Shown in pieces: positions 55,103 to 64,000 of a stretch of 64,000 nucleotides of DNA (position 1 is the first letter of the stretch; the number at the start of each line of letters is the position of its first letter). The notes beneath the pieces are model-generated. The model saw only the letters and a program-made list of their open reading frames with translations. It had not been told where the DNA came from and did no database searches. The position numbers and the translations under genes were made by a program. Source of the DNA: Limnochordaceae bacterium (GTDB taxonomy: Bacteria; Bacillota; Limnochordia; Limnochordales; DUMU01); contig JADBKQ010000001.1 in NCBI GenBank assembly GCA_014896305.1, positions 20,066-84,065 on the forward strand. The letters are read 5' to 3'.

Positions 55103-56635
55103 TCAGGCCACCGGTGGCGCTTTCGGACGGCGGCTACGACGCCAGCCAAAGGCGACCAGCCCCAACGCCAGCGGAATTAGAGACAGTCCATACAACGTCC
55201 AGGGTGAACGCTGACCAACGGAACGAATCTCGCGTTCACTGCCGGGGATTACCTTCCCCTGGGCGTCGATCACGCGAATCTGATATCCGTCGCCCTCGGG
55301 AATCGTGACCCGGAAGCCCCACAGCGTGGGCTTCTGTCCCTGCATGGCAGGATCCTTCGGGTCAAAAGGCACGATCTGGTACCCCAACGCGTAGCCAGGC
55401 GATTGTTTCACGAAGAACGGCTCCCGGACCACGGTCTGGAGCACATCACCATTGCGCACCAGTTGCAGCTTTACATCCGTCCGTTCCTTGGTATGTACCC
55501 ACTCCCAGTCTGTCTCCGTGCCCTTGCCGGCCAGTGGCTGGTGGACTTGGGTCAGCTGGGTGTAACCATACCGGTTGTATTGCTGCTCGTCGAAGGCAGC
55601 CAGGTAGACGGTGCGACTTCCCCAGGCGTACAGGACCTGGGTCTCGTCGTCGCTGCTGATCGGTACCGTCCACTTGCTCTCCGGAACGATCACGTAGCCG
55701 AGCCCATTCCGGCGCGGGCCTATCACAATCAGCTTCTTCTGGCTGCCGGCCACTACTGCCCCCTTGGGATCGACCGCCTGAACCTGATATTCGCCTGGCG
55801 GCAAGTTGACCAGGTATGAGTCGGCCGGTTCCGTCACGTAGAAGCCGACCGGATCTGGTTGCTTGGGGGCAGGGGGAATCTCGCTCTGCTTGGCCGGCTT
55901 ACCTGTCTTCTGCACCCGCTGGATCAGGTTGTTCATGTACTGCTGCCACTTGTCGTAATCGTCGTAGTACTTGGTGACCGCTTTATAGTAAGCGTCGTTG
56001 GCCTTATTGTAGCGGTCGTACTCCTTGACTGCCTCATCCCCGATCAACAACCGGGGCGGGTCACTGAAGTTTTCCCCCCCATAGTAGTAGGCGTATTTGA
56101 CCTTCTCCAGGGTCTTGATAACCTTGCCGTTTTGAAGGATCTGTAACTTCCCTGGCACATCCTCTCGGTAACCAAACCAGTCCGCCATGTACTCCCCCGT
56201 GATGGGCCAAAAGTAAACTTCGGTCCGCACCGGGTTTACGAGGCTGTCATGGTTGGCCACCAGGTAGAACGTATCCGCTTGCTTGGGTACGAACGTGCCG
56301 CCATACGGATCATCCGTTTTGCCCGTCCATGGGCTCAGCGAGTACACCAGCTGCTTCTCTTTGGCTGGCATACCTTCGCTCTGCAGCTGCTCTGCGCTGG
56401 GTTGCTGCGGCATTCCCGGCAGATTGGCCTCGGGTGGAGTAGCTTTCCCGCTGGTGGAATTGCTTTCCCCGGCGGGCGAAGTGGCGGTCGTCGTCGACGA
56501 ACTGGTCGTAGTAGAGCTCTTACTAGTAGAGGGGCTGCTGCTCGCTCCCGTTGCTGCCCAGGCTACCGAGGTCGCCGTCAAGGCCACGAGCAGACCCGAG
56601 AGGGCCAGCCACGGCGTCAGTTTCGTTCTCCTCAT
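55103..56635 (-). CDS. Exported, C-terminally membrane-anchored hypothetical protein (ABC accessory)
   Basis: Signal peptide, Ser/Thr linker, C-terminal TM + RRSRR; overlaps permease stop. Confidence 0.75.
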   Translation of the reverse strand: MRRTKLTPWLALSGLLVALTATSVAWAATGASSSPSTSKSSTTTSSSTTTATSPAGESNSTSGKATPPEANLPGMPQQPSAEQLQSEGMPAKEKQLVYSLSPWTGKTDDPYGGTFVPKQADTFYLVANHDSLVNPVRTEVYFWPITGEYMADWFGYREDVPGKLQILQNGKVIKTLEKVKYAYYYGGENFSDPPRLLIGDEAVKEYDRYNKANDAYYKAVTKYYDDYDKWQQYMNNLIQRVQKTGKPAKQSEIPPAPKQPDPVGFYVTEPADSYLVNLPPGEYQVQAVDPKGAVVAGSQKKLIVIGPRRNGLGYVIVPESKWTVPISSDDETQVLYAWGSRTVYLAAFDEQQYNRYGYTQLTQVHQPLAGKGTETDWEWVHTKERTDVKLQLVRNGDVLQTVVREPFFVKQSPGYALGYQIVPFDPKDPAMQGQKPTLWGFRVTIPEGDGYQIRVIDAQGKVIPGSEREIRSVGQRSPWTLYGLSLIPLALGLVAFGWRRSRRPKAPPVA

Positions 56636-57465
56636 CCCCTCTTCACTCCTTTCCGGTTAAAGAAGAAGACCGAACCGGCCAACAGGACGAGGGCATATAC
56701 GAGCGCTTCGCCCACGGCAACCAGGTAGCCAGTGGGACTCTGAAGGGCTACAGCCATTGCTCCCCGATTCAGGTAGCCGACCGGAGACAACCAGTTGATT
56801 CCCCGGCTCAGGATGTCTGCTGCCTGTCGCAGGTAGATCAGGCCGGTGCTCAAGTCCTTGTCCGGCAAGTTCATCAGATACTGGTACCCGTAAGAGAAGC
56901 CAATTAGAGCAACCATGAGCGCAACAAAGAGAACCACCGACGCTCTACTACTCTTCGTCACAGAGGAGAGGAAGATCCCAAACGCGACTACAGAAGCCGC
57001 CACGAAGAATGAAATGACCAGCAGAGCCAGAAGCTCCCAGTTTAGCCCCAGATTGGTCACCAACGAAAGGATGAGGAAGAACACTAAATCAACGATGAGA
57101 ACGGCTCCAAAAACCAGCATCTGCTCGACGAACTTCCCCAACACATAGCTGATCGAGTCGACTGGGCCGTAAAAGAGCACCTCCAGCGTTCCCTGGTCTC
57201 TTTCCCGGGAAATGGAAAGCGACGATAGTAACGCCAAATACACAGAGCTGATAAGGACCGCGATGAATAAGGGGCCTACCAGCGGTGGCGGCACGACCAG
57301 GACTCCATTTTGCGAGATCGTCCAAAGAGCCTGGTTGAGAAAGTACGATGACGCCACAAACGAGAGCGCCATCACGATATAGATGCCAATCCCATAGAGC
57401 GTGGATCGAAGCTCCCGGCCAGCCACCAACCGAATCACGCGCAGGCGCTGTGCGGTGACACTCAT
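56632..57465 (-). CDS. ABC-2 type permease (GldF/NosY-like)
   Basis: RELRS, SISRERDQGTLEVL..GP, VLGKF, six TMs. Confidence 0.85.
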   Translation of the reverse strand: MSVTAQRLRVIRLVAGRELRSTLYGIGIYIVMALSFVASSYFLNQALWTISQNGVLVVPPPLVGPLFIAVLISSVYLALLSSLSISRERDQGTLEVLFYGPVDSISYVLGKFVEQMLVFGAVLIVDLVFFLILSLVTNLGLNWELLALLVISFFVAASVVAFGIFLSSVTKSSRASVVLFVALMVALIGFSYGYQYLMNLPDKDLSTGLIYLRQAADILSRGINWLSPVGYLNRGAMAVALQSPTGYLVAVGEALVYALVLLAGSVFFFNRKGVKRG

Positions 57466-58427
57466 GCAACACCCTCCTCCGCCAACAGCGAGATATTGTT
57501 TTCCGTGATCGTCACAAATGCCTCTTCCAGGCTCATTTCCACTGTCTGCATGCCCAGGACCAGCGCACCGGCTTCTGCAATGGCTCGCGCCACCTGCGTG
57601 CGACGTTCACTGCCTGGTTTGGCCTTGATGATCAACGTAGCTCCAGCGCCAGCTGACGGCTGCTCCGAGACGTCGATGCTGGATACCCCTGGGATCTGCT
57701 GCAAAGCCGGGATCAGGCTGGCCGGCAGCTGGTCCAGATCGACCCGGAGCTCCATTTCCTGGGAAAGGCGCTGGCGGAGTTCATCCATGGTCGCTTCTGC
57801 TAACAGGCGCCCCTTATTCATGATGCCAACCCGCCCGCATATCCGTTCGACCTCTGACAGCAGGTGCGAGGAGATTAAAAGCGTCCGGCCCCTCTCATGC
57901 TCTTCCATCAAAATGTCGCGGACTTCCCGCACGCCGTACGGATCGAGGGAGTTGGTTGGCTCGTCCAGGATCAGGATCTCCGGGTCATGCAGGAGCACCC
58001 GGGCCAAGCCCAGCTTCTGCTTCATTCCCTTGGAGTACCCCCCCACTAACTCCTGCTGGCGGTCGCGCAGGCGAACTCGCTCCAAGACCTCCTGGATGCG
58101 CTGGTTGGGGTGCTCCACGGCGTACAGGCGGGCGAAAAACTGCAGGTACTCCAGGGCTGTCATTTCGTCGTACATGTACTGGTACTCGGAGAGTACCCCC
58201 AACCGCCGCTTGATGCCGAAGTAATCTTCGGGCAAGAGCTTCCCAAATAGGCGGACACGTCCGGCCGTAGGCTGCAACAGCCCCAGGATCATCATGATCG
58301 TGGTCGTCTTCCCCGCGCCGTTAGGCCCAAGGAACCCAAATATCTCGCCCTTCTCCACGTGCAGGTTGAGGTTATCCACCGCCGTCAACGTGCCAAATCG
58401 TTTGGTCAACCCCTCCGTTACGATCAT
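57462..58427 (-). CDS. ABC transporter ATP-binding protein
   Basis: GPNGAGKTT, YSKGMKQK, LILDEPT, SSH; C-terminal SLEEAF. Confidence 0.95.
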   Translation of the reverse strand: MIVTEGLTKRFGTLTAVDNLNLHVEKGEIFGFLGPNGAGKTTTIMMILGLLQPTAGRVRLFGKLLPEDYFGIKRRLGVLSEYQYMYDEMTALEYLQFFARLYAVEHPNQRIQEVLERVRLRDRQQELVGGYSKGMKQKLGLARVLLHDPEILILDEPTNSLDPYGVREVRDILMEEHERGRTLLISSHLLSEVERICGRVGIMNKGRLLAEATMDELRQRLSQEMELRVDLDQLPASLIPALQQIPGVSSIDVSEQPSAGAGATLIIKAKPGSERRTQVARAIAEAGALVLGMQTVEMSLEEAFVTITENNISLLAEEGVA

Positions 58428-58461
58428 TCAGGCGACCCCCTTACAAACAAAATGCGTCCTC

Positions 58462-58491
58462 TTGACATCTCTGGCAAAACCTTTCTATGAT
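58462..58491 (+). promoter_or_regulatory. sigmaA promoter of smpB
   Basis: TTGACA-18 bp-TATGAT. Confidence 0.75.
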
Positions 58492-58497
58492 GAGGTC

Positions 58498-58983
58498 ATG
58501 AACGCACCAGCCGACTCCGTCCGGCTCATCGCAGAAAATCGCCGAGCCCGTCACGATTACTTCGTAGAAGAGACCTTCGAGGCCGGGATCGTGCTCACCG
58601 GAACCGAGGTCAAGTCCTTGCGGCTCGGCCGCCTCAACCTCGGTGACGGGTACGCCTCTATCGAGCACGGCGAAGTCTTCCTACGCAACGTCCATATCTC
58701 CCCCTATGAGCAAGGCAATCGATTCAACCCCGACCCCCTTCGCCCTCGCAAGCTCTTGCTGCACCGCCGGGAAATCCTGCGGCTGCAAGTACGGTTACGG
58801 GAGCGAGGAATGACGCTGGTGCCCCTCTCTTTCTACTTCCGCAAAGGTCGAGTGAAGGTGAGTTTAGCCCTCGCCCGGGGCAAGAAGCTGTATGACAAGC
58901 GGGAGTCCCAGGCCCGGGAAGAGACAGCCCGTCGTCTTCGTCAGGTGCTCCGCGAACGAGAACGGACGAGCCCTTCCGAGTAA
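58498..58983 (+). CDS. smpB: SsrA-binding protein
   Basis: IAENRRARHDY, EAGIVLTGTEVKSLR, RKLLLHR.EI, GKKLYDKR. Confidence 0.97.
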   Translation: MNAPADSVRLIAENRRARHDYFVEETFEAGIVLTGTEVKSLRLGRLNLGDGYASIEHGEVFLRNVHISPYEQGNRFNPDPLRPRKLLLHRREILRLQVRLRERGMTLVPLSFYFRKGRVKVSLALARGKKLYDKRESQAREETARRLRQVLRERERTSPSE

Positions 58984-59242: not shown

Positions 59243-59591
59243 GGGGGTGAATCAGGTTCGACACAGGGCGGGATGGCATTCGCAGCGAGCCGAGCCTCTC
59301 CGACTCGTAAATCCGGGGAAAGAACCATAAGTGCCAACAACGATTACGCTCTAGCGGCTGCGTAAGTAGCCTCTACGCCGGCCCGATGACGCCCGCTATT
59401 CGGTGCCCGGTGTCATGCAGCGGGATGGCTCTGACCGCAAGCCTGGACGGTCAGGGGACTCAACAGGCTGGCTGATGCAGGACCCTGCTTTGGGGGGCCG
59501 GCATGAGCGAGATGCAAAACCAAGGCTACGCTCGTAGACGCGGGTGTGGTCCTCCTTGTGGACAGCGGTGCAACTCCGCTCACCTCCACCA
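59243..59591 (+). ncRNA. ssrA: tmRNA; tag ANNDYALAAA
   Basis: 5' GGGGGTGAATCAGGTTCGAC; ATAAGT before GCC resume codon; tag ORF ending ALAAA-stop; 3' CACCTCCACCA; TG-TATACT upstream; follows smpB. Confidence 0.95.
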
Positions 59592-59605
59592 TCTTTGTGA
59601 AGCAC

Positions 59606-59650
59606 AACTCGCCGCCCGCTGGCCAGCAGGGGGCGGCGAGTTCTTATTTA
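59606..59650 (+). terminator. Terminator after ssrA, facing the convergent porV-like gene
   Basis: AACTCGCCGCCC/GGGCGGCGAGTT stem then CTTATTT. Confidence 0.75.
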
Positions 59651-59695
59651 CCTATCTTTCCCTGCCCCTCTTGCGGATCGGCCTGGGAGGTCCTG

Positions 59696-60601
59696 TCAGA
59701 AGCGAATGCCTGCCGAGAACCGATGGCTCACGGGCAAATACGCCTCCAACTGGAGGGCGTAGTCAACGGCCAGATTCCCGCTCACCACTCCCAGTCCGGC
59801 CGTCACCGCTGAGCTGCCGCGACCGCTCCAGCCCCCCAGCCGCAACATCAACCGGCCACTAGTGAGTTCGACTCCGCCCCGCAGCGTGTTCGGCGCCTGG
59901 AAATCGCCGACCCAAAGGAGATTGCCGTGACGCCACGCCATGCCAAACACATACTCGCTATCGAAGCGGTCACTGACTCCATTGTCATAGACCACCGTGC
60001 CGGCTGCATTCCGGACTACAGCTGCCAGCGAGACTGGTCCCTGGGTGAGGAGCACCCCGGCGTCAGCCGTCAGCCCCCACCCCTTCACCCCCGGCAGGTT
60101 CTGACGATAGTACTTGGCAGCCACGCCAATGGCCACGGCACCCGCCTGGCGCGCTCCCCCGACCACCACCACCGACTCCGACAGGTCGAAGACCCCTGTC
60201 GGATTCCCGAACGAATCCCGGTACTCATTCCCGGCCGAGCCGAGCTGCACCAGACCTGCTCCCCAGCCCCCACTGGCTGCCCCGACCGATAGGTAGTCGG
60301 CCACATCGAACTGAGTGGCATACATTGAGGAGAGCTGTGTTCCCCCGACCCGGACCAGCGCTGCCGGATTATAAAAGATGGCCGTGCCGTCGGCAACCGC
60401 GGCCACTCCCGCCCCCCCTAGCGCCAACAAACGTGCGCTGGTGCCCAGGCCCAACAACCCGGCGGTCCCCGCATAGTCGTTCGTTTCACCTGCCGCCGCA
60501 GCGGCCGGGCTACCGACCAGCCCGGCTATGGCCACGACAAGGACCGACGCTGCCAGAGCGGCCCATCGCCCTGACCACTTTTCGTTCACAGGATGCACCA
60601 T
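59696..60601 (-). CDS. PorV/PorQ-family outer-membrane beta-barrel protein
   Basis: Signal peptide; hatch motif GTSARLLALGGA.VA..D..AIFYNPAAL; amphipathic Gly-rich beta strands; C-terminus VDYA..HRFSAGIRF with terminal Phe. Confidence 0.8.
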   Translation of the reverse strand: MVHPVNEKWSGRWAALAASVLVVAIAGLVGSPAAAAAGETNDYAGTAGLLGLGTSARLLALGGAGVAAVADGTAIFYNPAALVRVGGTQLSSMYATQFDVADYLSVGAASGGWGAGLVQLGSAGNEYRDSFGNPTGVFDLSESVVVVGGARQAGAVAIGVAAKYYRQNLPGVKGWGLTADAGVLLTQGPVSLAAVVRNAAGTVVYDNGVSDRFDSEYVFGMAWRHGNLLWVGDFQAPNTLRGGVELTSGRLMLRLGGWSGRGSSAVTAGLGVVSGNLAVDYALQLEAYLPVSHRFSAGIRF

Positions 60602-60622
60602 GCTGCCCACTCCCTTCCCCTC

Positions 60623-63600
60623 TCAGCGAACGATCGTCAGCCGCCCGACCCGACTGGCCGCTCCATCCGCTGTCACCACGGTGAACAGGTACAGCCCACT
60701 GGCCAGTGGCCGGCCGGATAGGTCGGTCAGATCCCACGTGTAATGATTGGCCGCCGGATTGAGATCCCGCTGGAAGACCAACTCGCCGCTGATGCTGTAG
60801 ACGTACAACGTAGCCGGGCCGGTCACTGTGTAGTAGAAGGTTACGGAGTCGTGCGCCGGGTTCGGGCCCGTGGTTACCGTCCCGTTCACCACGGCGATGG
60901 TGAAGATCCCGCTCTTCGCCTGCACGCTGTGCCCCAGCGGGTCAGTGGCCGTTACCCGCACCTGGAACCGGTCGCCGCCCCTACCGACCTGCCGGGTGTC
61001 CCAAGAGTACACCCCGTCGTTCTCCGTCTTCTGCACGATGGTCTTCCATGTGCTTCCACCATCTGCACTGTACTCGATCCGAATGGACAGTTCGTCCCCG
61101 TCCGGATCCTGGGCCTGCCACCGGATCTCGTGCTCGCCGGTCCAGACATCCCCTGCCTGAGGTGCCGTCACCTCCACCTTGGCGTCGGCTACGTGCAGCA
61201 CCACCGGTACAGTGATCTCTGACTTGTTGGGATCGTTGGTTGTGATCTTCACCATTGCCGAGTACTCCCCCACCGCCAGACCGGCTGTATTGACGGTCAC
61301 CTTGAGCACTCGTTGTTCACCCGGCGGAATGCTTCCGGTCGCTGGCTCGAGAGACAACCAGCTGGCAGAGGAAACGACCTGCGTCTGGAAGTCAAGAGTA
61401 CCCTGGACGCCCTGGACACGGGGGTTGGCTACTGTCAACGTTGCTTGCGCCGTCGTCTCCCGGTTCAAGGTGAACTCCAGCTGGTTTGGCGTAACGACGT
61501 ACGCAACGGTCACCTGCCCGACAGCTACGCTCTGGGCACCCTCGTTATCCTCGTAACTGACCCGGATGGTGTACTTCCCAGGCTGCTGGTAGGCATGTTT
61601 CTGGTTGACCTGCGCGGGCTGTGGCGGCGTTCCGTCTCCCCAGTCCACCGTGGCCGTTTTGATCGAGCCATCCACATCCTCAGCTGCCGTGACGAGCAGG
61701 ATTTCTGTCCCTGGTTCCACTGGACCGGCAGCATCGATGCCAGCCAACAGGATGACCGGGGCCACGTTGGTCGCACCGCCAAAGTTGTGGTAGGCCCGAG
61801 CCAGTACCTGCGGCAAGGTGCCAGTAACCGGCACCAGAGCCTGTGAGCTTACCCTGCCGTTGGGATAGTTGGGATAGTAGACAGGCCACTTCAGCGGGAG
61901 CAGTTGAGTCCCTCCCTGCTTCCGGTTGGGCAGACTGAGTTGCCCCCGGCGGGCCGGCTGAACCACGAAGGAACCAGCCTGCGCCGCTGCCAAGGCCGCC
62001 TGTTGCTCATCGTTGGCCACCAGGCTCTGAAGGGGGATCGCCTCCAGGGGGAAGGTGGTAAACGCGACCCAGTAGTCATCGCCACGATACACCAGGCCAT
62101 TGGGGACAAAGCCCTGGCTGTAATCGTTCGGGTCAGCCGGACGAAGGAAAAACGGAGAGATCGTACGCCAGTCGCTAGTGATCGCATCACTCCAGTCGCT
62201 GAACGGAAAGTCCGGCTGAATGACCAGGTCTTTCGTAATGGGTTCACTCTGCCAGCCGATGACGAGCGGCGATCCAACGTCGTGTTGCACGTTATCCACG
62301 TGCAGGTAGGTTCTGGCAAACGCTTGCCCTTCAGGGGTCGGCCAAAGATTGAAGAGCTCGTCCTGCCCGGACAGAATCAAACGGCCGCCGTGATCCAGGA
62401 ATTCGGCCAGAGCCGCCACCTGCGCTCTGCCGGTATAACCTGTTTCACCCGTCGTCCATAACAGCAGGTAGTCCCAGGCTCCATCGAGGATTCCCTGGCT
62501 GTCCACCAGATCATCTGGGTTCACCACGACATAGGGCAGGCGAAGCTGGTCGAGAGCGGCGGTCAACCTCTGCCAGGCGACCAGGTGCGTTTCTTCGCTG
62601 GAATATGTACCGCCGTCGACCACCAGGAGACGGGTTCCCACCGGAACGACCACAAAGGTACGAGTCGCCCAGGTGTCTTCCCCTTGATCGTCCACCGCCT
62701 GTAAGCGGGCCTGGTAGACGCCCGGCGCTGTATAGGTGTGGGATGCCGCATAATCCGGCCCCTGCACTCGCACCCTCGGCGAACCATCGCCGAACTCCCA
62801 GTAGACCTCGGCGACCGCAGCGACTTGCACCGGGTCGGTCACCTGGGCCCGTACTTCGACAGTCAACGGCGCGTCACCCAGCTGGCGATTGCTGCCAACA
62901 CTGACGACGGGGGGCAGGTTGACATCGAAACCGGTCAAGAAGTGGTAGATACGCTGCGCTACGTCGGCAGCGCCGGTCACCCCGGAGGGCAGAGCCGCGA
63001 ATTCAAACGCGGCAAATACCGACCGCGCCCCCTTCGGATCTGAGGAGATGAACCGAACCGCCGGCGTTATGCCAGCGGGAGACGTCAACGTCGCATCCGC
63101 ATCCAGGGTGGGAACCAGCGAGTCGGCTCGATCGGTATATCCCACTGGATACTGAAGCTCGATCGCCCCCAGCCCCCTGCTGATGGGGTCTGCTGGGATA
63201 CCTGCAATCGCAGCCAACCCTACGTCCTGTTGGGTCCTGTCCACATGCAATACTGTCTTGGCAAATGAGGTACCTGCCAAGTCCTGCAGAATGTCCTGGC
63301 CGGTCAGGAAGAACTTCCCTCCGGCCTGGTGCAAAGCAGCCAGGAAAGCCTGTTCATCCGGGTTCAGGGCACCGCTGGATACTGCCCCCGTCTCCCAGAA
63401 TACCGGCTCGGGCAGCTGAGCAGGGTCCAGCCGCAACAGGGATGCAGGATCGGTCACAGTGAAAGGAATCCGGGCTGATTGCAGTGCGTTGGCCAGCGCT
63501 TGCTGGTACTCCGCCCCCTGATCATCATCCACGACCAGGGCCAGCGGCGGCTGACCGGGTGGTGGAGCCACCTCCACCGTTGCGTACACGGTCACCGCAT

Positions 63601-64000
63601 CGCCATCCGCATCCGTAGCGGTGACGGCAACCACATACACTCCTGGCTCGCGGTACGCGTGTGTCACCTCCGCTTGTGTGCCCGTCACTGGTGCACCGCC
63701 ATCGCCGAAATCCCATTTCAAGGAGGCCAGCGTGCTAAACGGCGTCTTGACCGTGGCCGCAAAGCTCACCTCTACCGGAGAAGCGTTGTCCGTCTTGGCC
63801 ACGCGCTGCCCCCAGGGCCGTCCGTTTACTTTCACCTCCTCAATTACGGGCAAGATCCGTTGGCTCACCGCATTCCAGGCGTTCAGCCGGACCGGAGAGA
63901 CCATCTTGCCCTGGAACGATGGCTGGTAGTCTCCAGAGTACATTAGAAGCTCCTTGAGGGTTAGCTGCCCTTGCTGGTAGCCTGGTGCACCTGGGAAAGC
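60623..64000 (-). CDS. Large multidomain protein (5'-truncated): S8-like C-end, 3x PKD, 2x GATase-like, BACON/Ig, T9SS type-A-like CTD
   Basis: Frame open to window edge; LKELLMYSGD...GKM...RLNAWNAV resembles the end of a subtilase domain; W(D/E)FGDG..H.Y..PG.Y PKD x3; WLSLEP.TGSI.PG BACON; tail GPNP..TFYY..LYVYSISGELV..WDL.D.SG.PLASGLY..V..GRL.IVR. Confidence 0.85.
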   Translation of the reverse strand, partial: AFPGAPGYQQGQLTLKELLMYSGDYQPSFQGKMVSPVRLNAWNAVSQRILPVIEEVKVNGRPWGQRVAKTDNASPVEVSFAATVKTPFSTLASLKWDFGDGGAPVTGTQAEVTHAYREPGVYVVAVTATDADGDAVTVYATVEVAPPPGQPPLALVVDDDQGAEYQQALANALQSARIPFTVTDPASLLRLDPAQLPEPVFWETGAVSSGALNPDEQAFLAALHQAGGKFFLTGQDILQDLAGTSFAKTVLHVDRTQQDVGLAAIAGIPADPISRGLGAIELQYPVGYTDRADSLVPTLDADATLTSPAGITPAVRFISSDPKGARSVFAAFEFAALPSGVTGAADVAQRIYHFLTGFDVNLPPVVSVGSNRQLGDAPLTVEVRAQVTDPVQVAAVAEVYWEFGDGSPRVRVQGPDYAASHTYTAPGVYQARLQAVDDQGEDTWATRTFVVVPVGTRLLVVDGGTYSSEETHLVAWQRLTAALDQLRLPYVVVNPDDLVDSQGILDGAWDYLLLWTTGETGYTGRAQVAALAEFLDHGGRLILSGQDELFNLWPTPEGQAFARTYLHVDNVQHDVGSPLVIGWQSEPITKDLVIQPDFPFSDWSDAITSDWRTISPFFLRPADPNDYSQGFVPNGLVYRGDDYWVAFTTFPLEAIPLQSLVANDEQQAALAAAQAGSFVVQPARRGQLSLPNRKQGGTQLLPLKWPVYYPNYPNGRVSSQALVPVTGTLPQVLARAYHNFGGATNVAPVILLAGIDAAGPVEPGTEILLVTAAEDVDGSIKTATVDWGDGTPPQPAQVNQKHAYQQPGKYTIRVSYEDNEGAQSVAVGQVTVAYVVTPNQLEFTLNRETTAQATLTVANPRVQGVQGTLDFQTQVVSSASWLSLEPATGSIPPGEQRVLKVTVNTAGLAVGEYSAMVKITTNDPNKSEITVPVVLHVADAKVEVTAPQAGDVWTGEHEIRWQAQDPDGDELSIRIEYSADGGSTWKTIVQKTENDGVYSWDTRQVGRGGDRFQVRVTATDPLGHSVQAKSGIFTIAVVNGTVTTGPNPAHDSVTFYYTVTGPATLYVYSISGELVFQRDLNPAANHYTWDLTDLSGRPLASGLYLFTVVTADGAASRVGRLTIVR

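Follow-up and report, generated by a model that had tools for sequence, protein, structure and literature searches.

The window, the whole 64,000-nt stretch of DNA analyzed here, ends in two adjoining genes that share an orientation on the minus strand, as the sequence-only reading had placed them. ORF reading confirms its observation of a cargo protein with a C-terminal domain (CTD) paired with a PorV-type barrel, and every motif it quoted is present in the two translations. The features are:

59696-60610, minus strand: barrel gene, an ORF of 304 aa with a GTG start, PorV/PorQ-family-like
60611-60622, minus strand: spacer of 12 nt from the cargo stop codon to the barrel start codon, operon-like
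60626-60910, minus strand: cargo CTD, the last 95 codons, type-A-like, of FlgD_ig/Por_Secre_tail type
60623-64000, minus strand: 3' part of the cargo gene, 3378 nt, or 1125 of 1581 codons

On the minus strand the order is cargo, then barrel, and the cargo gene extends 1368 nt beyond the window end; the whole gene lies at window coordinates 60623-65368 (G000:C1:80688-85433) and encodes 1581 aa. An alternative barrel start, the ATG at 60601, gives the recorded 301-aa form (P0004) and a spacer of 21 nt. RNA-library contigs span the cargo/barrel junction (X11 record 7, 60361-61107; X12 record 15, 60561-61147), and these bridges from two libraries are a weak hint of co-transcription.

Pfam searches on the full translation (P0001) identify the cargo as an S8 subtilase of the secreted-protease type. 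Its N-terminal part consists of a signal peptide, a Fervidolysin-like prodomain, the subtilase domain (Peptidase_S8, residues 204-455) and three PKD domains, followed by a middle region with no domain assignment, then BACON-like and Ig-like domains, and the CTD. The catalytic motifs DTG, HGTH and GTSMATP are readable in the translation, and the C-terminus carries GPNP, VYSISGELV, LASGLY and RLTIVR. Of the tail models named for comparison in the sequence-only reading, both TIGR04183 (31.6 bits against a cut-off of 23) and FlgD_ig (30.8 against 27) are passed, and Pfam Por_Secre_tail stays under its cut-off of 27 at 18.1 bits. The tail alone scores 34.2 bits against TIGR04183, with the genome-level match at C1:80718-80930. 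When it is aligned with 11 CTDs of the lineage, the invariant residues are P16, P18, A19, Y38, G42, W59, G72, L73 and Y74, with R90, at position -6, nearly so. Cargo orthologues in seven cluster loci share 35-38% identity across ~1100 aa. The window cargo is the sole match of the lineage CTD profile over the window genome, which thus holds a single cargo.

The barrel protein carries a signal peptide and, in its N-terminal hatch, an NPA motif (SARLLALGGAGVAAVADGTAIFYNPAAL in the ORF translation); its last residue is Phe. The NPA hatch motif is a general feature of the FadL/PorV superfamily; it is common to FadL, and a FadL "delta NPA" mutant entry is among the structure matches. The best NCBIfam family is PorV_fam, at 53 bits (E 3.9e-14) against a curated cut-off of 90, followed by PorQ (46.7) and PorV2 (E 4.5e-10, 39 bits vs. 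a cut-off of 325). All 80 of the 80 nearest homologues match PorV_fam, and six of them match TIGR03519 (PorP/SprF), weakly. Pfam returned no family at E <= 1, FadL-type included. Judged by the TIGR04183 score of the tail and the PorV_fam E-value of the barrel, the motif and family matches of both proteins exceed chance. An AF2 model of the barrel (pLDDT 91.9) has PorV chains 8gl6_F and 6h3i_F as its top PDB matches (Foldseek), nearly tied with FadL in structural Z (31.8 and 31.3 vs. 30.2), and the FadL/TodX/TbuX channels score 27-30. The earlier assignment to PorV/PorQ rather than FadL/TodX thus stands by sequence, and structure leaves the two nearly level. The barrel loops are short, with 304 aa in total vs. 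345-367 modelled residues in solved PorV chains. In the phylogeny, the window barrel groups with 11 PorV-like proteins in a 12-row clade that has 99% support; the 11 come from this phylum or a Bacillota MAG, and nine were read in three-gene clusters.

That the barrel may bind the neighbouring CTD, as had been proposed, is supported by prediction: the modelled complex reaches an ipSAE of 0.88 vs. 0.00 for the best control, and the pass mark is one that 58 of 80 solved complexes and 2 of 110 mismatched pairs attain. Contacts agree between runs in 96% or more, the partners each have a pLDDT of 83 or higher, and the predicted CTD contact sits on one face of the barrel loops. Because a complex of similar kind has been solved (8GL6), this outcome may stem from resemblance to it and not from binding.

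Spo0A and LpxC are both over cut-off in the window genome, and BamA has two matches, one above cut-off; the host belongs to a diderm, LPS-making lineage of Spo0A-encoding Bacillota. An unrecognised T9SS-like machine elsewhere in this genome had been raised as a possibility, and a candidate part of one lies on contig C8, apart from the cargo/barrel pair on C1: an SprA-like outer-membrane protein of 1603 aa (G000:C8:35198-40009) whose orthologues adjoin a PorV-like gene in relatives. A profile of seven SprA homologues matched this protein alone among 5545 ORFs of at least 150 aa (E 1.7e-15), and found the same ORF again when run as a genome search (E 1.6e-13). By hhalign, the Bacillota SprA-like family aligns with the SprA set over 550 columns (99.6%, E 8.4e-25), and with only the three bona fide SprA sequences that pass TIGR04189 over 514 columns (97.6%, E 3.7e-12; reversed control 0.2%). 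The homologous part is the first ~600 residues, and similarity after residue ~650 is not significant (hhalign 11%), so that the giant pore is putative only; on these alignments we regard the protein as a distant SprA homologue over its N-terminal third. A terminal Phe is nearly invariant in the family. TIGR04189 itself had no match in the window genome at E <= 0.01, Pfam found no SprA_N in the C8 protein, and the family profile, searched against PDB sequences at E <= 1, missed F. johnsoniae SprA and matched beta-propeller entries only. Searches of the genome found no PorU core (with working controls), no GldK match and no motor or ring parts; PorK, PorL, PorM and PorN were not detected, the PorL/M (GldL/GldM) searches having run without a working control.

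Genes for a CTD cargo, a PorV-like and an SprA-like protein occur together at 11 of the 12 loci of the same phylum read at ORF level, and the twelfth begins, as read, at its PorV-like gene. The cargos of these three-gene clusters are orthologues of the window cargo. By coordinates, a PorV_fam match lies beside, or one gene from, the SprA-like gene in 14 of the 23 genomes that carry one. Among 400 other genomes sampled from the phylum, 20 carry an SprA-like gene (by P0156), 63 a PorV_fam match and 98 BamA. Both families are restricted to BamA genomes (20 of 20 SprA-like carriers and, as we read the tables, each of the 63 PorV_fam carriers), and a PorV_fam match is present in 18 of the 20 SprA-like genomes. 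The closest sampled relative, G351 of the same family, has no SprA-like match and no full PorV-like match. At least six adjacent CTD cargo/PorV-like pairs occur in G400, a relative with a complete genome, and in other phyla 27 of 76 loci have an upstream-gene tail matching TIGR04183, while among 150 control tails fewer than 3 do. The pairing is therefore recurrent, in keeping with the dedicated PorV-like barrel for a neighbouring CTD protein that the sequence-only reading envisaged; its two proposals, a dedicated barrel and a machine elsewhere, are supported jointly.

A subtilase, its own PorV-like carrier and an SprA relative in one genome suggest that two-membraned Firmicutes operate a reduced relative of the Bacteroidota type IX secretion system. 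On balance, the pair probably supplies the cargo and the carrier of a compact T9SS-related secretion module, with the putative SprA-like pore encoded elsewhere in the genome and each cargo apparently having its own carrier gene. The 1581-aa pre-pro-subtilase would pass the inner membrane via Sec, and the neighbouring PorV-like 14-strand barrel would recognise its C-terminal beta-sandwich domain. The loaded barrel would then dock on the large C8 protein, whose pore would let the cargo through the outer membrane; the cargo would exit attached to its own carrier, to be retained at the cell surface or released by proteolysis. Such a module with one carrier per cargo is not reported in the literature searched, and its function, including binding, translocation, surface retention and energy coupling, is one that we infer.

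The barrel might instead anchor or export the neighbouring CTD protein alone, as a two-gene system like two-partner secretion, leaving the SprA-like protein some other job, such as an outer-membrane function via its beta-propeller insert. The isolation of the pair from the SprA-like gene in the window genome would fit this, as would the limited reach of the SprA homology, the 45 of 63 PorV_fam-positive genomes with no SprA-like match (P0156), and G400, where a single SprA-like gene was found by profile searches, 11 kb from the closest of its pairs. However, a hatch-plugged 14-strand barrel of FadL type cannot pass a folded 1500-aa protein (established fold knowledge), and with the three-gene clustering and the co-occurrence of SprA-like genes with BamA and PorV_fam, we consider export by the barrel alone unlikely. 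It is less likely still that the neighbours are unrelated, the barrel being a FadL/TodX-type channel for hydrophobic compounds and the tail a generic FlgD-like Ig domain for adhesion or surface binding. The near-equal tail scores, the sub-threshold PorV_fam match and the closeness of FadL, TbuX and TodX structures leave some room for this, but the leading NCBIfam families, the empty Pfam search, the enriched adjacency, its retention with orthologous cargo in seven loci and the complex prediction all argue against it.

Were the segment foreign, as a chimera made in binning or assembly or as DNA recently acquired from an FCB-group bacterium, it would say nothing on Firmicutes. The pair does lie 104 nt from the tmRNA gene (ssrA), tmRNA genes are common island insertion sites, and the closest PorV-like proteins outside the phylum come from FCB and candidate phyla. 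Yet contig C1 is 356 kb long and uniform in composition, the 3' end of the tmRNA has no second copy in it, and GC3 is within the genome range (mean 0.717, sd 0.05) for barrel (0.74), cargo (0.71) and SprA-like gene (0.70). Contigs of two other metagenome studies span the ssrA/barrel junction (X2 record 18, X4 record 26), the barrel/cargo junction is likewise covered by independent contigs, and the chimera suspected at ssrA can be set aside. With orthologous clusters in 20 of the 400 genomes, three of them single-contig, and the barrel clade described above, a foreign origin is highly improbable.

Several known systems resemble the proposed module. Like the FadL/TodX/TbuX channels, the window barrel has 14 strands, an N-terminal hatch and the NPA motif, but its linkage to a CTD cargo and an SprA homologue is conserved and it lacks a FadL-type Pfam match. 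NCBIfam carries models (NF052324, NF052325) named "PorU2/PorV2 type IX sorting system", and porU adjoins porV in P. gingivalis. Here too, the gene immediately before a PorV-family barrel codes for a CTD-bearing protein, and the barrel matches PorV2 at the sub-threshold score given above. The protein from that upstream gene is, however, an S8 serine protease and not a C25-type sortase.

Gorasia and colleagues reportedly described, in 2022, F. johnsoniae substrates that bear a type B CTD and have cognate PorP/SprF-like shuttles. Such substrate/shuttle pairs also appear in Paillat et al. (2025; PMC12618676), where, as here, the substrate gene is linked to that of its own outer-membrane shuttle and several pairs are possible per genome. 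In contrast, the signal here is type-A-like and its partner PorV/PorQ-like rather than PorP/SprF.

In F. johnsoniae, the T9SS core translocon comprises the SprA/Sov pore, PorV as carrier and cargo with a type A CTD, and its description has the CTD bound by PorV loops and a near-invariant Lys at position -6 (Lauber et al., 2024; PMC10994853). The window system shares a C-terminal beta-sandwich signal that passes TIGR04183, with a basic residue, here Arg, at -6; a FadL-fold carrier of the PorV/PorQ family with a predicted CTD contact on its loops; and an outer-membrane protein of very large size whose homology to SprA spans ~550 columns. It differs from the Bacteroidota in that no PorU core or GldK match accompanies it, and in its SprA-like proteins, which are 1350-1690 aa vs. 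2319 positions in TIGR04189, the SprA model, and have a beta-propeller insert and no detectable SprA similarity past the N-terminal third. Where one PorV serves all type A cargos in Bacteroidota, each cargo here would have its own carrier, the cargo, PorV-like and SprA-like genes form a single cassette, and the host is a diderm, Spo0A-encoding member of the Bacillota.

The two genes at the end of the window encode an S8 subtilase (hereafter the cargo) and a PorV-like outer-membrane protein whose ORF starts 12 nt after the cargo stop on the minus strand, by ORF reading. When the contig is read past the window edge, the cargo gene is complete at G000:C1:80688-85433 (G000 being the genome under study) and encodes 1581 aa.

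Genes of the pair and features of the cargo protein
59696-60610, minus strand: PorV-like barrel gene, 304 aa
60623 to past 64000, minus strand: cargo gene, S8 subtilase
Cargo N-terminus: hydrophobic signal-like segment, read in the translation
Cargo residues 61-146: Fervidolysin-type prodomain (Pfam)
Cargo residues 204-455: Peptidase_S8 (Pfam), with DTG, HGTH, and GTSMATP motifs in the translation
Cargo, central part: three PKD domains, then a long unassigned middle region (Pfam)
Cargo, ahead of the C-terminal sorting domain: BACON-like and Ig-like domains (Pfam)
Cargo residues 1508-1568: FlgD_ig, C-terminal (Pfam)

A sequence-only reading of the window had described type A sorting hallmarks in the cargo tail and a hatch motif in the barrel, and all of the motifs it quoted are found in the translations. 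The C-terminal sorting domain (CTD) occupies the last ~70 residues and reaches the final residue of the cargo. It passes NCBIfam TIGR04183, “T9SS type A sorting domain” (31.6 bits for the window fragment and 34.2 for the tail alone; cut-off 23), as well as Pfam FlgD_ig (30.8–33.8 bits; cut-off 27), and fails Pfam Por_Secre_tail (PF18962; 18.1 bits vs. a cut-off of 27), so the proposed type A assignment hinges on the model chosen. Within G000 the cargo is the sole TIGR04183 match, and a profile made from 12 lineage CTDs matched the cargo alone among 5545 ORFs of at least 150 aa.

No Pfam family was found for the barrel protein. Its top three NCBIfam matches are the PorV/PorQ family model NF033709 (PorV_fam; 53 bits, E = 3.9e-14), PorQ (46.7 bits), and PorV2 (39 bits); the PorV/PorQ identity suggested from the sequence holds as the best-matching family, at a score below the curated cut-off of 90. 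Operon-linked PorV-like genes elsewhere in the phylum do pass that cut-off, with up to 117.8 bits, and 17 of 401 phylum genomes have a match over it. An exhaustive profile search from the barrel returned 25,115 representative proteins at E <= 0.001, and PorV_fam matched all 80 of these homologues that were aligned (best E = 9e-75). On these profiles we file the window barrel as a divergent relative of PorV/PorQ, not as a certified member. Its AlphaFold model (pLDDT 91.9, pTM 0.84) consists of an N-terminal hatch and a barrel, and in a Foldseek search with this model the top-ranked structures were the PorV chains 8gl6_F and 6h3i_F (E = 8.7e-10). Alignment with VIA-align gave Z-scores of 31.8 (rmsd 4.2, 264 residues) and 31.3 (rmsd 3.6, 260 residues) for PorV, nearly tied with 30.2 (rmsd 2.6, 249 residues) for FadL, so fold alone cannot tell PorV from FadL, whereas sequence profiles can.

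Binding between the two proteins was modeled by complex prediction using barrel residues 40–304 and a 95-residue CTD, with an alignment supplied for each. The pair scored 0.88 and the best control 0.00; of 80 solved complexes 58 attained the same mark, as did 2 of 110 mismatched pairs. The runs shared no less than 96% of contacts, and the pLDDT of the partners was 83 or higher. On the barrel, predicted contacts fall in alternate loops (100–104, 123–135, 170–175, 208–217, 263–268, and 289–293), all of which, by reading of the strand order, appear to lie on one face; on the CTD, they involve the GPNP region, central strands, and the C-terminal RLTIVR. Lauber (2024; PMC10994853) describes the extracellular face of PorV as the one that binds CTDs, and the predicted contact face of the window barrel would be the same. 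This check of the proposed binding passed its controls, but a similar complex from F. johnsoniae (8GL6) is already solved, so the result may stem from that resemblance instead of true binding; the prediction supports recognition of the CTD by the barrel and does not demonstrate it.

The sequence-only reading saw no sprA in the window and allowed for an unrecognized T9SS-like machine elsewhere in the genome. The curated SprA model TIGR04189 gave no match in G000 at E <= 0.01 (927 bits in the control MAG G004), and a profile made from seven SprA homologues of other phyla points to a distant candidate on contig C8. TIGR04189 itself aligned weakly but collinearly to an Elusimicrobia MAG and to a “Clostridia” MAG. 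In the genome that encodes the closest PorV-like relative it had one weak match, within a 1417-aa gene; a PorV-like gene and a window-cargo orthologue lie immediately upstream of that gene. The C8 ORF, 1603 aa long, is the G000 homologue of this 1417-aa gene (E = 1e-90, with 27% identity across 1459 residues) and is also the only G000 match to the seven-sequence profile (E = 1.7e-15, or 1.6e-13 in a genome search with the same alignment). Profile-profile comparison of the family with the SprA set gave 99.6% (E = 8.4e-25, 550 columns), pairing family positions 44–653 with SprA-set positions 163–779; against only the three sequences that pass TIGR04189 it gave 97.6% (E = 3.7e-12), and 0.2% for the reversed control. 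The C-terminal 650 residues compared with SprA C-termini using hhalign gave a non-significant 11%. From these profiles, the C8 protein is probably a distant SprA homologue, demonstrably SprA-like in its N-terminal ~600 residues only.

Pfam and NCBIfam gave no SprA match on the C8 protein, and a word-based homologue search with it returned only itself. The family profile searched against PDB sequences matched beta-propeller entries only, leaving SprA unmatched at E <= 1, and single SprA-like sequences gave nothing useful there. Thirteen of the 14 aligned family members end in Phe. A Reg_prop-type beta-propeller is inserted mid-protein, at positions ~575–870 of the family alignment A4 (roughly 650–1000 of the SprA-like protein P0156); it resembles sensor domains of Bacteroides hybrid two-component systems (PDB 4a2l, 3v9f), and the region is much shorter in a 1035-aa (L133) and an 803-aa homologue. 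The family is currently without annotation in Pfam or NCBIfam, and its nearest ESM Atlas cluster is labeled “hypothetical protein” (107 members). Reduced SprA-like genes of 1700–2150 aa with several collinear weak TIGR04189 matches were also seen in “Clostridia”, Elusimicrobia, and Poribacteria MAGs (G003:C187, L091:1752-6998, minus strand; G005:C43, L092:1444-6594, plus strand; G008:C187; G010:C1).

Genes around the SprA-like gene and the second PorV-like gene of G000
L093:3892-6099, plus strand: second S8 subtilase, 735 aa, with a CarboxypepD_reg domain, adjoining the NAGPA protein
L093:6128-9163, minus strand: 1011-aa NAGPA (phosphodiester glycosidase) and Ig-like protein, directly downstream of the SprA-like gene
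L093:9199-14010 (G000:C8:35198-40009), minus strand: SprA-like gene, starting 312 nt from the end of contig C8
L009:4531-5913 (G000:C26:11530-12912), plus strand: second, very divergent PorV-like gene (P0002, 460-aa ORF), following an ABC exporter gene (P0003) and stopping 357 nt short of the contig C26 end

The lineage CTD is in neither the NAGPA protein nor the 735-aa subtilase. Contigs C26 and C8 placed end to end would give the order of the relatives, PorV-like then SprA-like; no overlap was found when their ends were compared.

Among 400 other sampled genomes of the same phylum, SprA-like proteins were found in 20 with P0156 as query and in 21 with the independent SprA profile (18 common to both sets, plus G129, G260, and G287), PorV_fam in 63 (16 over cut-off), and BamA in 98. 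All 20 SprA-like carriers are BamA-positive, as are, by reading of the tables, all 63 PorV_fam carriers, and PorV_fam is also present in 18 of the 20. Twelve loci were read at ORF level. Eight have the order cargo, PorV-like, SprA-like (in one of them, L123, the PorV-like gene is displaced in the ORF list and was placed from PorV_fam match coordinates); two start with the PorV-like gene, followed by cargo and then SprA-like; one combines cargo and PorV-like genes with a shorter, 803-aa SprA-like gene; and one begins at the PorV-like gene. By coordinates, a PorV_fam match adjoins the SprA-like gene or lies one gene off in 14 of 23 SprA-like genomes, and in the remaining nine the genes are apart, on short contigs, or without a listed PorV match. 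The window cargo shares 35–38% identity over about 1100 residues with seven cluster cargos. Likewise, the window barrel and 11 PorV-like proteins from the phylum or a Bacillota MAG form a clade with 99% SH-aLRT, nine of whose 12 rows come from the ORF-read clusters. Searches for the SprA-like protein gave no match in G351, the closest sampled relative (same family), or in two genomes of the same order, so its distribution is patchy.

Recurrence of the CTD–PorV pairing, on which the sequence-only reading had staked its proposal, is borne out within the phylum: the three genes are together in 11 of the 12 loci, and G400, which is of the same order and assembled as one contig, carries six or more neighboring pairs of CTD-protein and PorV-like genes. 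The G273 genome has two SprA-like genes, each with its own cargo and PorV-like gene. Outside the phylum, the gene directly upstream was taken in 76 of 80 loci, the other four having no same-strand upstream ORF. Of these 76 tails, 27 match TIGR04183 and 32 the CTD portion of the PorU model (E <= 0.001), or 28 and 33 of 77 when the window's own tail is counted; neither family is among the 25 commonest (the last listed having three members) in a control of 150 random tails from 391 other ORFs in the same loci. Ten upstream proteins scanned at full length include one M6-like protease, one PorU-like protein, and one delta-60 repeat protein, and the other seven match in the tail only or not at all.

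Two further arrangements were observed around PorV-like genes. Calditrichota and allied MAGs have a recurring trio in which a giant CTD protein (1100–2700 aa) precedes a longer PorV-like fusion (420–690 aa) and then a ~1000–1300-aa protein (L021, L022, L033, L039, L043, L046, L051, L060, L068, and L089). In Poribacteria, the gene preceding the PorV-like gene encodes a conserved ~653-aa membrane protein, not a CTD protein, and a CTD protein is often downstream (L049, L054, L055, L059, L062, L063, L066, L071–L073, L076, L077, L080, L081, and L083).

We also searched for other T9SS parts. The PorU model NF033707, which scores 892 and 732 bits in the control genomes G004 and G007, has no match in G000 (92% complete), and in five relatives (G400, G273, G175, G394, and G063) matches in its CTD part only (positions ~960–1094), with no PorU core. 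With the GldK model, G000, G273, and G394 were negative, and G400 had a single weak partial match (E = 6e-4). Searches for GldL and GldM (TIGR03513, TIGR03517, and PF12081) yielded one weak partial GldL match, in G175 (E = 0.007, 17 bits), and no GldM match in any genome searched. Because the intended controls (a “Cytophagia” MAG with SprA and PorU, and Rhodothermales, Ignavibacteria, Zixibacteria, and Eisenbacteria MAGs) were silent too, these searches are uninformative either way. The FCB-group MAGs G004, G007, G006, and G411–G413 (loci L039, L023, L011, L057, L082, and L017) have clear SprA and PorU yet no GldL/GldM match; either the search misses these proteins, or the organisms have a different motor, or none.

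The host genome comprises 2.56 Mb in 58 contigs, and its nearest named records are “Bacillota bacterium” MAGs. It contains two BamA matches (one over cut-off), LpxC, and Spo0A over cut-off, which together indicate a diderm, LPS-type lineage encoding Spo0A.

Genes beside the PorV-like barrel gene in the window
55103-56635, minus strand: 510-aa protein with signal peptide, Ser/Thr-rich stretch, C-terminal hydrophobic anchor, and basic tail
56632-57465 and 57462-58427, minus strand: two genes, one ABC ATPase-like and one ABC-2-type permease-like, upstream of the gene for the 510-aa protein
58441-58983, plus strand: candidate smpB ORF, just before the tmRNA gene
59243-59591, plus strand: tmRNA gene (tag ANNDYALAAA), 104 nt from the barrel gene and converging on it

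The proximity of ssrA had raised the question of a chimera or of foreign DNA. Metagenome contigs from two other studies, X2 and X4, bridge the tmRNA/barrel and barrel/cargo junctions (X2 record 18, 59319-59791; X4 record 26; X2 record 23, 60417-60789), and GC3 values are in the genome range (barrel 0.74, cargo 0.71, SprA-like 0.70; genome mean 0.717, sd 0.05). Composition is even along the window, and the 3' end of the tmRNA is unrepeated in the contig, giving no support for an island at ssrA. The locus looks native, and a foreign origin is close to excluded. Contigs from two RNA libraries cross the cargo/barrel junction, a weak hint of expression; in both libraries, 2 of 30 bins of the barrel gene lack contig cover (60117-60318). 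RNA contig depth was in the thousands over the tmRNA and in the tens over its neighbors.

The pair is most economically read as part of a compact system related to the translocon core of the T9SS. The pre-pro-subtilase would be exported by Sec, its CTD would be recognized by its own PorV-like carrier at the SprA-like pore, and it would end on the cell surface, either carrier-bound or freed by proteolysis. Two rivals to this account are less likely. One makes the barrel and cargo a two-gene anchor system with no part for the SprA-like protein; the location of that protein on a separate contig in G000 is compatible with this, and the clusters of relatives place it beside the pair. The other holds that barrel and cargo are unrelated neighbors, against which stands their conserved pairing across the phylum. 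Returning to the compact translocon, a stronger version would make the three-gene cassette a minimal type IX secretion system sufficient in itself, with neither PorKLMN motor/ring nor PorU, one dedicated carrier per cargo, and an old origin, whether in a two-membraned Firmicutes ancestor or as the core behind the Bacteroidota machine; we consider this version unlikely.

Abby et al. (2016; PMC4793230) and several abstracts treat T9SS as restricted to Bacteroidota or the FCB group. We found no report linking Limnochordia with type IX secretion, although supplementary tables could hold such matches, and a Limnochordia paper (PMC11456536) has no occurrence of T9SS or PorV; as far as we found, literature on T9SS with diderm Firmicutes, Negativicutes, Halanaerobiales, or Elusimicrobia reports no T9SS parts there. 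Part of the picture is already implicit in databases, as NCBIfam would label some members as PorV-like or CTD proteins. Judging from sequence matches, T9SS-like translocons may be more widely spread outside the FCB group than the literature states. If the proposed account is correct, a SprA-PorV-CTD core in diderm Firmicutes would widen the reach of T9SS, and a natural minimal version would show which parts outer-membrane crossing needs; the question of energy would be sharpened, since no motor was found. It would also offer a candidate route by which diderm Firmicutes place large enzymes on the surface, in the form of a three-gene cassette small enough for heterologous expression.

Two further comparisons can be made with the known system. 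According to Lauber (2024), type A CTDs have a near-invariant Lys near the C-terminus, and a K-x-x-x-x-[RK] ending is common among the FCB tails we compared. Here position -6 is likewise basic, yet it is Arg in the window cargo and in 10 of 11 further CTDs from the lineage, the remaining one having Lys. Furthermore, whereas many type A cargos share one PorV in the Bacteroidota T9SS, G000 has a single cargo and G400 at least six cargos paired with PorV-like genes.
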